From an uncultured Mageeibacillus sp. (GTDB taxonomy: Bacteria; Bacillota; Clostridia; Saccharofermentanales; UBA5734): a DNA stretch of 64,000 nucleotides. Made by a program: the position numbers and the translations under genes. The DNA is taken from the NCBI GenBank assembly GCA_964528645.1, contig CAZGSR010000004.1:3523-67522 (forward strand). Direction: 5' to 3'. The notes below the pieces were generated by a model, which ran no database searches, was not told where the DNA came from, and saw only the letters and a program-made list of their open reading frames with translations. Shown here in pieces: positions 19,241-33,875 of this stretch (position 1 is its first letter; each line of letters begins with the position of its first letter).

Positions 19241-19269
19241 ATTATAGGCTTTGTCCGAAAAAGCCGCAA
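19241..19269 (-). promoter_or_regulatory. Candidate sigma-A promoter of the oxidoreductase operon (TTGCGG-17-TATAAT)
   Basis: The minus strand reads cTTGCGGctttttcggacaaagccTATAATcag. Confidence 0.45.
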
Positions 19270-19276
19270 GCTTTAC

Positions 19277-19908
19277 TCGATCGGGGTTCTTTGCTTATTA
19301 TCGTGAAATGTTTATTAAGCAACAAGGGGGTCGCGCGAAGGGTGCGCCCAAAATCGGCAATTGCCGAAATCTGCACCAGGGGTGGCGCGAAGGGTGGCCC
19401 CGCGGGCGGAATATTCACGATCTGGGGCCAGGGGTGGCCGTAGGTCTGGCACTTTGGATGGAATTTTCCACAATTGGGGTCGGTGCACCAAAACGGCAAC
19501 AACTCCGGGAGGTCCGAATACGCCTGCGGCAGAAGCCTTCTCCAGATCAAGCCAAGATCTTCCACTTATATGCTCCGACATAGGAAAGGAACGTTCCGCC
19601 GCTATGTCGGAGCCCTTTTTTGGAACATTTTCGACGAGGCGTCAACCGCCTGCAGCTGTAGGCTTCACAAGTGCATTGCAGATCTTCCACAAAAAGTGGA
19701 CCGACCCCCAATCCGGAACATTCCGCAATAAGGGCCACCCCTCGCGCCACCTCCGACCCCAAATCCGGAACATTCCGTCCACTGTGCCAGGCTTGGCCGT
19801 ACCTCTGGCCCCAAAACCGGAATGTTCCGCCCACAGTGCCACCCGTCGCGCCACGTCTGGAACCAAGCATGAAATGTTCCGTATGCGTAGTCAGAATTGG
19901 CGCGAGTA
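19277..19908. repeat. Dyad-symmetric intergenic array: about 4+4 tandem 52-bp units in opposite orientation around a central hairpin, each unit with a 12-bp CGGAAnnTTCCG-type palindrome
   Basis: Right-arm units are 19701-19752, 19753-19804, 19805-19856 and 19857-19908. Right cores start at 19714, 19766, 19818 and 19870, exactly 52 bp apart. Left cores start at 19304, 19355, 19407 and 19459. All are mirrored within 1 bp about 19592.5. Confidence 0.85.
19572..19621 (+). terminator. Central hairpin of the array with a plus-strand T6 tract (terminator-like): GCTCCGACATAG-18 nt loop-CTATGTCGGAGC-CC-TTTTTT
   Basis: The 12-bp stem is perfect and the loop displays GGAACGTTCC (19588-19597). A U-tract exists only on the plus strand, yet both neighbouring genes are on the minus strand. 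Confidence 0.45.
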
Positions 19909-20736
19909 TCAGCGGTCAGTTGGATAATGGATCGAGCGGACAAGGTTCAGCACCGGCAAATCAACCAAGATGCTGTCGTCTACTCGCACATCCGCTTGCA
20001 TGGACACATCGGACCCATCGGTTCCATCAGCCGCATCAGCCAACTCTGGTTCTTCCATCGTCGCGGCAAACACAATTGGCAGACCGGCCAGGCGGGCGCC
20101 TGCGGTCACGATCGGATAGCTCTCCTCGATCAGGTGCCAGTTTGCGACCTCCAGCAAGTTGGCATTGTCGACTATCCCATGAAGGCGCAGGCCGGTCGCG
20201 GACTCGATATCTGCGGCGGCGCGGGCAATGCCTTCCGGGGTCCCTGTCATGGGTCGGTAGGGATTGACCACCAGATTGATGGCAAAATCTTCGCCGGCCA
20301 ACCGGTTGCGCAGAGAACCGACGACACGGGCACCGAGGTCTTCACCGCCGATGTCGAGGACGGCCAGGACGTCGGGATTGTCAAATACGGAAAAGACCTG
20401 GGGTGGCAAGGACGGGACATCAACATTGGTATTGGCGTACATCGAGGCAACGAGCTCGATCTGGTTGTCAGCCAGCAAAGCACGCGCGTCAGCTGAGCGG
20501 TAGTAGGGATTGATCATATCAAGATCACACAGGATGACGCGTTGGCCTTCCTGCCTGACGTTTCTGGCCAGCCAGAGGGCGAAATTGACACTGATTTCGG
20601 ATTTGCCGCTGCCGTAAGCGCCGACGAAAACGGTAATCCGGGCTGGGGTACCGGTCATTCCATGACCGGATGCCATTCCATGACCGGATGTCATTTCGCG
20701 ACCAGGTTGCCGATTTCGAGTGATAAATTGAGGCAT
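19909..20736 (-). CDS. P-loop NTPase (SIMIBI/GPN-loop-like ATP/GTP-binding protein), function unknown
   Basis: Walker A is VFVGAYGSGKSE, followed by VILCDLDMINPYY and AVLDIGGEDLG. The C-tail is acidic. The N-terminus has a tandem SGHGM(A/T) duplication (18-nt DNA repeat, 20655-20690). GAAAGG RBS lies before Met 20736. Confidence 0.6.
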   Translation of the reverse strand: MPQFITRNRQPGREMTSGHGMASGHGMTGTPARITVFVGAYGSGKSEISVNFALWLARNVRQEGQRVILCDLDMINPYYRSADARALLADNQIELVASMYANTNVDVPSLPPQVFSVFDNPDVLAVLDIGGEDLGARVVGSLRNRLAGEDFAINLVVNPYRPMTGTPEGIARAAADIESATGLRLHGIVDNANLLEVANWHLIEESYPIVTAGARLAGLPIVFAATMEEPELADAADGTDGSDVSMQADVRVDDSILVDLPVLNLVRSIHYPTDR

Positions 20737-31958: not shown

Positions 31959-31974
31959 ATGCATACTTGAATCA

Positions 31975-32070
31975 ATGGAAGCAGTGAAACTCAGGACGTA
32001 TTGGACGCTTGTCCTGAGAGGAGCCAGTAGCGTAACCGGCCATGTGTATCTAATCAAGGCCGGTTTTTTC
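31975..32070 (+). promoter_or_regulatory. Riboswitch-like leader 2 (aptamer 31975-32043 plus terminator 32034-32070); paralogue of leader 1, resembling c-di-GMP-II
   Basis: The architecture matches leader 1, with a fully compensated helix (CUCAGGAC 31990-31997 / GUCCUGAG 32011-32018). It has the same loop GGACGCUU and the tail GAGCCAGUAGCGUAACCGGCCAU. The terminator AACCGGCC/GGCCGGUU plus U6 follows. Confidence 0.55.
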
Positions 32071-33774: not shown

Positions 33775-33875
33775 CCCAGTTTCGGTAGCTGGCTGCCACG
33801 GGAGATGTCCCAGAGGCCCTTTAGCTTTGCGTCCCAGGTTTTCACCTGGTTTGCCTTTATCGGCTGAAGGCTTAT
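33775..33875 (-). promoter_or_regulatory. c-di-GMP-I (GEMM-I) riboswitch in the leader of CAP paralogue 3
   Basis: The minus strand reads AUAAAGGCAAACC-AGGU-GAAA-ACCU-GGGACGCAAAGCUAAAGGGCCUCUGGGACAUCUCCCGUGGCAGCCAGCUACCGAAACUGGGAGGUUUUUUAAUG. It has the hallmark GGCAAACC, a GNRA-capped P1 hairpin, and GGGACGCAAAGC. The segment AUCUCCCG can alternatively pair with UGGGAGGU (the SD), which is followed by U6. Confidence 0.8.

Follow-up and report, generated by a model that had tools for sequence, protein, structure and literature searches.

The locus and its flanking genes

The repeat array described here lies within a 64,000-nt stretch of DNA (hereafter the window), in the gap between two genes that are both located on the minus strand. 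On one side, the stop codon (19909-19911) of a P-loop NTPase gene (19909-20736, minus strand) directly adjoins the element; homologue and domain searches assigned the 275 aa product to no Pfam family, and all its homologues stem from Clostridia/Eubacteriales MAGs. On the other side, the downstream operon encodes a ferredoxin together with the alpha, beta and gamma subunits of a 2-oxoacid:ferredoxin oxidoreductase. Its promoter (19241-19269, minus strand), i.e. a -35 TTGCGG at 19269-19264, a 17-nt spacer and a -10 TATAAT at 19246-19241, is situated outside the element, 15 bp from the left end. The -35 had already been predicted at 19264-19269 in the initial annotation, and the conservation of TTGCGG-17-TATAAT in relatives supports it, with TTGCGN-17-TATAAT being kept in L061, L067 and L068, whether the element is present or absent. 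As side observations, several metagenome contigs stop 23-49 bp past the P-loop gene, and a c-di-GMP-I-GGC riboswitch match was recorded in the RNA-family search. This match had suggested a Geobacter origin, which was rejected in view of the exclusively Clostridia/Eubacteriales homologues.

Structure of the repeat array

The repeats form two arms of opposite orientation around a centre of 217 bp. The right arm (19701-19856, plus strand) consists of three tandem 52-bp units, i.e. R1 (19701-19752), R2 (19753-19804) and R3 (19805-19856). The 52-bp period initially proposed for this arm was reproduced by Tandem Repeats Finder, which reports a period of 52 with 3.0 copies at 19705-19860, and by a repeat search that found three in-register direct repeats of 52 nt starting at 19701, 19753 and 19805 with 71-75 % identity. 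The units of this arm were also recovered by nhmmer (E = 1e-10), and the motif CGGAANNTTCCG occurs three times in the window, with 0.05 occurrences expected. The left arm (19328-19483, minus strand) carries the same unit family in reverse complement, as had been claimed, in the form of the three tandem 52-bp units L3 (19328-19379), L2 (19380-19431) and L1 (19432-19483). Evidence for this is given by an inverted pair of 108 nt with 75 % identity (19376-19483 versus 19753-19860) and by nhmmer (E = 2e-8 to 2e-10). In a search with a unit profile, six units were recovered (E = 1e-8 to 1e-11), without any further match in the 64 kb.

The initial annotation had described four plus four phased units. 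While three units per arm are solid, the outermost pair is not: L4 (19276-19327) shares 21-33 % identity with the other units, which is the chance level, and R4 (19857-19908, plus strand) shares a marginal 44-54 %. The former in fact corresponds to a terminal inverted repeat (see below), the latter is a degenerate fourth unit that is equivalent to the start of a tail of about 150 bp found in complete copies, the element being cut off at this point.

The claim of one palindromic core per unit likewise holds in part. Each of the right-arm units R1-R3 contains a perfect CGGAAYRTTCCG palindrome, but across the 29 distinct family units compared the left half of the core is variable and often broken, with C at column 14 in 14 and G at column 15 in 19 of them. 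In the same comparison, TTCC in the core was invariant and GTGCCA 3' of the core near-invariant, and certain core variants, i.e. CGGCAATTGCCG and TGGAAAATTCCA, retain the symmetry. Covariation of a hairpin in the unit core was considered as well and is partial at best, the left half-site often being broken.

The centre displays a hairpin (19572-19613, plus strand) that can be read directly from the sequence, with a perfect 12-bp stem (GCTCCGACATAG at 19572-19583 and CTATGTCGGAGC at 19602-19613) and an 18-nt loop containing the palindrome GGAACGTTCC at 19588-19597, both as initially described. This stem is kept in L060, L061, L065, L070, L071, L074 and L075, the orthologous and dispersed copies introduced below. 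It is flanked by two 88-bp spacers. The left spacer (19484-19571) contains a block, CGCCTGCGGCAGAAGCCTTCTCCAG...AGATCTTCCAC, that recurs 126 bp to the right in direct orientation according to a direct-repeat match, and is highly conserved among copies; the right spacer (19614-19700), starting with GGAACATTTTCGACGAGGCGTCAACCGCCTGCAGCTGTAGGCTTCACAAG, is about 82 % identical to positions 13-196 of L019 and conserved in all copies. The two spacers align better directly (score 5) than as mirror images (score -7; shuffles -13 ± 4.6), so strict mirror symmetry about 19592.5, as put forward initially, was rejected: the core-to-core arithmetic is correct, but the spacers are direct repeats and the axis is not unique, identity amounting to 50.6 % about 19592 and to 49.4 % about 19618.

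Coding capacity and RNA structure

No Pfam match was obtained at E ≤ 0.1 for the ORFs spanning the array, in agreement with the initial statement that none of the translations looks protein-like, and the six-frame translations of the element are full of stops or of low complexity. A remnant of a transposase N-terminus in the tail was also considered and dismissed, as the translations were not convincing.

The strong predicted fold of the region might point towards a gene for a structured non-coding RNA or towards a leader or terminator acting in cis, in which the arms would form one long hairpin. Folding of the minus strand yields -298.8 kcal/mol (z = -7.2), the central hairpin is followed at its 3' side on the plus strand by a TTTTTT stretch (19616-19621), as in an intrinsic terminator, and a weak promoter-like site is located on the plus strand at 19272-19301. 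However, any inverted repeat is expected to fold strongly, the region matched no Rfam family, whether the gathering threshold or E ≤ 1 was applied, and the stem is conserved in sequence, so that there is no supporting covariation. The -35 of the promoter-like site falls into the flank, outside the element. The T-run, moreover, is antisense to both flanking genes and only partly conserved, being imperfect in L071 and L075 and replaced by CTCATTCGG in L060, which is 97 % identical. Since it is found on the antisense strand only and is not well conserved, we do not call the hairpin a terminator, and an intrinsic terminator of the flanking genes was rejected for the same reasons. Taken together, we regard an RNA gene or cis-regulatory RNA element as very improbable.

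The orthologous locus in relatives

The gene order from the P-loop gene to the ferredoxin/oxidoreductase operon is conserved among relatives, in contrast to the length of the intergenic gap. In L067 and L068, whose flanking proteins are about 60 % identical, the gap measures 165-170 bp and is devoid of repeats, whereas it spans around 640-735 bp in the window and in L060, L061 and L065, the latter three at 80-97 % protein identity. Their gaps contain related, variously decayed units and the same hairpin. A further orthologue of the window locus, L072, was found in a metagenome scan with the unit pattern (91 % identity over 3 kb). Unit number varies among these sequences: the right arm holds three solid units in the window and two in both L060 and L072, L060 thus deviating in spite of 97 % protein identity. 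The P-loop proteins of the element-bearing clade end with ...HYPTDR* and are five residues shorter than those of the element-free L067 and L068, and their stop codon immediately adjoins the last unit. Of note, L065 harbours a separate, unrelated GC-rich array with a period of about 120 bp that adjoins the element, indicating that the spacer tolerates repeat expansion.

Both the variable unit number among close relatives and the neighbouring array in L065 would fit an array that was built up at this site through local duplications, both tandem and inverted, of intergenic DNA and was never mobile. This reading, however, is opposed by near-identical, complete copies with terminal repeats and target-site duplications at four other loci and contradicted by one precise polymorphism between an empty and a filled site, all described in the following section, and we consider it extremely improbable.

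A dispersed element with terminal repeats and target-site duplications

Scanning a genome collection with a pattern of two cores 52 bp apart gave 59 matches, mostly unrelated; only L015 and L019 were family members. Both are contigs of the "Mageeibacillus sp. UBA5734" MAG, and each starts with this centre and the units, placed in a different context. In the metagenome scan with the unit pattern, only window positions 19285-19865 matched L070, L071, L074 and L075, with 82-91 % identity, while their flanks showed no match. The housekeeping proteins encoded next to these four copies are unrelated, comprising a class II aminoacyl-tRNA synthetase/GyrI-like pair, a ThrRS/ComEA-like pair, a sulfatase/[FeFe]-hydrogenase pair and a subtilase. 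The family thus occupies five distinct loci, i.e. the window locus with its orthologues, L070, L071 (= L019), L074 (= L015) and L075 (= L081). Other metagenome matches were discarded: L073, L076 and L078 read by eye like unrelated coding DNA, and L077 is a chance match. Nothing was found for the array in plasmids and phages by BLASTN, nor for the hairpin and terminal repeat in viral contigs by pattern scans, and the right end gave just a chance match in plasmids by BLASTN.

Every copy has arms of two to four units around a centre of 217-220 bp. The complete element is non-coding, has a length of around 670-780 bp, exceeding most bacterial MITEs in size, and consists of a left terminal inverted repeat, two to four units, the centre, two to four units in opposite orientation, a tail of about 150 bp and a right terminal inverted repeat. 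The terminal inverted repeats of complete copies read GGCTCTTTGCTT.TT.CCGTGAAAA and are bordered by 8-bp target-site duplications. In L070, L074 and L075, GGCTCTTTGCTTATTACCGTGAAAAG at the left end corresponds to GGCTCTTTGCTTGTTTCCGTGAAAAA, which is the right end read in reverse complement. In the window, the left terminal inverted repeat GGTTCTTTGCTTATTATCGTGAAATGTTTATTAAGC (19285-19320, plus strand) aligns with the left ends of these three copies and with the reverse complements of their right ends, and includes TGAAATGTTTAT, which had initially been read as the core of L4. It is the only terminal-repeat match in the window at up to three mismatches (0 expected); the same search found no right terminal repeat in the window, and together with the unit-profile search it indicates one copy within the 64 kb.

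Duplications of 8 bp lie flush with the ends, i.e. ATTTCACC in L070 and TGGCATTG in L075, while 7 of 8 bases agree in L074. Direct evidence for insertion is given by the site upstream of the threonyl-tRNA synthetase (ThrRS) gene. It is empty in L079, L080, L082 and L083, with a gap of 146 bp and a single CAATGCCAG, and filled in L081 (the same locus as L075), with a gap of 830 bp, 675-676 extra bp and a second CAATGCCA(G). The flanks of the filled and empty sites are 100 % identical over 72 + 107 bp, and the encoded ThrRS protein is identical as well; a further contig, L084, is likewise empty at this site but has gained a minor additional insertion within the gap. The element therefore inserts with an 8-bp target-site duplication, and the polymorphism between empty and filled sites with identical flanks indicates that this transposition was recent.

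[quoted passage not shown] The array in the window is, with little doubt, a truncated copy of such a dispersed mobile MITE, the internal layout of which is unusual. Two hypotheses of the initial annotation, i.e. a decayed non-autonomous mobile element with composite inverted ends and one member of a dispersed intergenic repeat family, are thereby borne out, both being supported by the copies in unrelated contexts, the terminal inverted repeats, the 8-bp duplications and the empty/filled polymorphism. It had also been stated there that many near-identical copies with target-site duplications would make the array simply a MITE and end its novelty, and such copies exist. The element is hence unremarkable in kind, and only its internal architecture is unusual.

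The proposed protein-binding platform

The initial annotation had further proposed that the array is a platform occupied at a high level by a dimeric DNA-binding protein, and that it might act like a centromere, as a nucleoid organizer or as an operator that controls the oxidoreductase operon over a long range. As a centromere, it would be served by the adjacent P-loop ATPase. The exact 52-bp phasing and the perfect palindromes of the right arm, the conserved TTCC and GTGCCA, the core variants that stay symmetric and a faint ParA/MinD similarity of the neighbouring protein all speak in its favour. F sopC, a plasmid centromere of phased 43-bp units, is comparable in that its tandem units span a few helical turns and each contain a dyad-symmetric motif. 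However, L067 and L068 keep the gene pair without the array, whereas the array travels with its terminal repeats to unrelated loci, including loci without the P-loop gene, and the palindrome is broken in many units. The P-loop protein scores 15.6 bits against ParA_partition, compared with a cut-off of 180, and has a Walker A motif of the classical type; its gene has no ParB-like neighbour. A partition centromere of the sopC/parS type was rejected on these grounds, as linked and co-occurring ParA/ParB-type genes would be expected; in contrast to F sopC, the array has no partition operon and is not retained together with the neighbouring gene, and it is delimited by transposon ends and dispersed on the chromosome. 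The platform hypothesis is therefore unsupported, and we judge it improbable. A binding function might be carried by the transposon itself, but it would not be locus-specific.

A variant that starts from the MITE itself is that the units would be phased sequence-specific binding sites for the transposase or a host protein, in which the conserved AANNTTCCGCCC...GTGCCA recurs once per five helical turns, and that the MITE would thereby spread a multi-site protein platform to promoter-proximal positions genome-wide. The window copy, located 15 bp upstream of the -35 of the oxidoreductase promoter, would in this case have been recruited for a regulatory or architectural task. This idea seems unlikely to us.

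Proposed history of the window copy and possible role of the units

Returning to the truncated MITE, the window copy shows one terminal repeat and no recognizable target-site duplication, and in the alignment its similarity to complete copies does not extend beyond about 19865. That it arose by transposition is deduced from its membership in the family. As it has kept only the left end, and the other side abuts the stop codon of the P-loop gene, this copy is probably immobile. A plausible course of events is that the element, mobilized in trans by the product of a transposase gene located elsewhere, entered the roughly 70-bp spacer that separates the stop codon of the P-loop gene from the oxidoreductase -35 in an ancestor of the 78-97 % clade. 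The tail and the right terminal repeat may later have been lost by deletion along with the final five or so codons of the P-loop gene, after which the copy would have drifted and unit number would have changed by slippage or unequal recombination. A read-through RNA from the P-loop gene would fold as a very long hairpin.

The 52-bp units are internal modules of the transposon. Their most likely role would be that of reiterated subterminal sites for the transposase, a possibility raised initially, or for a host DNA-bending protein, or else they may simply be expandable satellite modules resembling boxB of the pneumococcal BOX elements. The CGTGAAA(A/T)GTTT motif of the left terminal repeat is found precisely one 52-bp period away from the first core, which hints that the units may reiterate a putative transposase-binding motif. 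The overall similarity between terminal repeat and units is at chance level, and the right end is about 14 bp out of phase, judging from coordinate arithmetic on L075.

Our data show that what looks like a centromere or operator is a transposon relic, for which an annotation as a site of regulation or segregation should therefore be avoided. They also define a MITE family with recent activity in a high-GC, as yet uncultured lineage of Clostridia from anaerobic-digester and hydrocarbon metagenomes. The element explains the recurrent contig breaks at its loci, and its insertion polymorphisms can be used as strain markers.

Comparison with known elements

As to the transposase family, the ends and the length of the duplication point towards ISL3. 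A MITE of Microcystis aeruginosa and its ISL3 partners have ends starting with GGCTCTTCG and 8-nt direct repeats (PMC11448079), and the ends of our element (GGCTCTTTG..., i.e. of the GGCTCTT type) agree with this published sequence in 8 of 9 bases. ISArsp7, another ISL3 member, has the IRL GGCTCTTCGCGGTTGGTGGTGAAT and an 8-bp direct repeat (PMC6305408); its IRR (GGCTCTTCGCGTTTCGTGGTGAAT) agrees with the right end of the element family at 16 of 24 positions in an ungapped hand count. The element thus shares with ISL3-derived MITEs and ISArsp7 the ends GGCTCTT(C/T)G and the 8-bp target-site duplication, as well as a non-coding nature, multiple intergenic copies and insertion polymorphism at the strain level. 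Elements of the IS6 family also combine GG tips with 8-bp repeats, together with conserved cTGTt and caaa motifs (PMC7986276). A derivation from IS6/IS26 was considered and rejected, as GG and the 8-bp duplication are present but cTGTt and caaa are absent from GGCTCTTTGCTTATTACC; furthermore, the ends read GGCTCTTTGCTT here, and the terminal repeats are longer than 15-20 bp. Since the ends and the 8-bp duplication fit ISL3 while the IS6 motifs are absent, we place the family among the ISL3-type MITEs with moderate confidence. The search for a cognate transposase yielded no further match to the ends, either in the window or in viral contigs and plasmids, and, as no transposase gene with matching ends was found, this assignment is based on end similarity over about 24 bp and on the duplication length. 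The element differs in its length of 670-780 bp and in its two inverted 52-bp arrays and conserved hairpin centre, which are not known as features of ISL3 ends.

With respect to its organization, the best-documented analogue is the pneumococcal BOX element (boxA - n x boxB - boxC; PMC3049150), the resemblance being one of organization only. Both are modular repeats dispersed in a Gram-positive genome, with terminal modules resembling those of insertion sequences and internal tandem modules of around 45-52 bp, the number of which varies between strains and loci (PMC3049150); a strong predicted RNA fold and a position beside gene starts are shared as well. In contrast to the single direct boxB array of BOX, the element described here has two inverted arrays around a unique 217-bp centre, and it further differs in showing clear target-site duplications, in belonging to another host lineage and in having no apparent sequence relationship to BOX. 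With its ISL3-like ends and expandable phased 52-bp arrays, it may offer a tractable case for why some bacterial MITEs, like BOX, have tandem modules.

Element ends and assembly breaks

Contigs frequently end at the element: the 3' ends of L062, L063, L064 and L066, as well as ends of L015, L019, L072 and L085, lie within the MITE or shortly before it. Since many contigs from both metagenome and MAG assemblies stop in this way, the element family repeatedly causes assemblies to break in the lineage of the window.

At one of the other loci carrying a copy (L071 2747-2833, corresponding to L019 343-429), a solo, inverted left terminal repeat directly adjoins the right terminal repeat of the element and carries a unit fragment (TTCGCGCCATCCCCTTGTCACC...CATTTCACGGTAATAAGCAAAAAG). 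These abutting repeats are the result of a nested or end-to-end insertion, or the remnant of a second copy.

In two orthologues of the window locus, from relatives at 80-84 % protein identity (L065 6560-6850 and L061 5790-5870), a different tandem array takes the place of the decayed element's promoter-side end or follows on from it. This array is very GC-rich, has a period of around 120 bp, contains ...CCGCTTCTCGCGCCTCCCGCACCCGCTCGCGATCCCGTCCCCGGCCTG... and extends up to the contig end.

Upstream of the ThrRS gene, the L084 allele is empty of the element and carries a 7-bp insertion at around 2905-2915 (CATAACGCGTAATTT vs CATAATTT), located a few bases off the MITE target site. A link of this insertion to the element, for instance as an excision footprint, would be one possible reading.

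Genomic surroundings in the window

The gene next to the element (19909-20736, minus strand) encodes a P-loop NTPase of 275 aa with a classical Walker A motif (GAYGSGKS), for which no Pfam family was found. The protein has more than 1000 homologues in Clostridia, of which a few carry a PF01656 or PF10609 tag. The position of its gene, next to and upstream of the ferredoxin/2-oxoacid:ferredoxin oxidoreductase operon, is conserved, also where the element is absent.

Elsewhere in the window, two different classes of cyclic-dinucleotide riboswitches lie less than 2 kb apart, i.e. a c-di-GMP-II riboswitch on the plus strand (31969-32050; 54 bits, barely over the threshold of 53.5) and a c-di-GMP-I-GGC riboswitch on the minus strand (33780-33864; 67.4 bits).

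Core-bearing arrays in unrelated bacteria

Tandem units of 51-54 bp, each with a CGGAANNTTCCG palindrome, were also found in bacteria unrelated to the lineage of the window; because the search pattern itself demanded a CGGAANNTTCCG-type core and the spacing, these finds are no gauge of enrichment, which cannot be judged from them. Three contigs of Waltera acetigignens harbour such arrays (L024 3430-3800, L012 1400-1830 and L050 ~830-900), with others located in Vulcanimicrobiota MAG sequences (L037 2030-2440 and L049 4990-5160) and in Salinisphaera orenii (L044 2390-2690). In the arrays of these unrelated bacteria, CGGAANNTTCCG is frequently embedded in a longer palindrome, e.g. TTTGTCGGAACGTTCCGACAAA.
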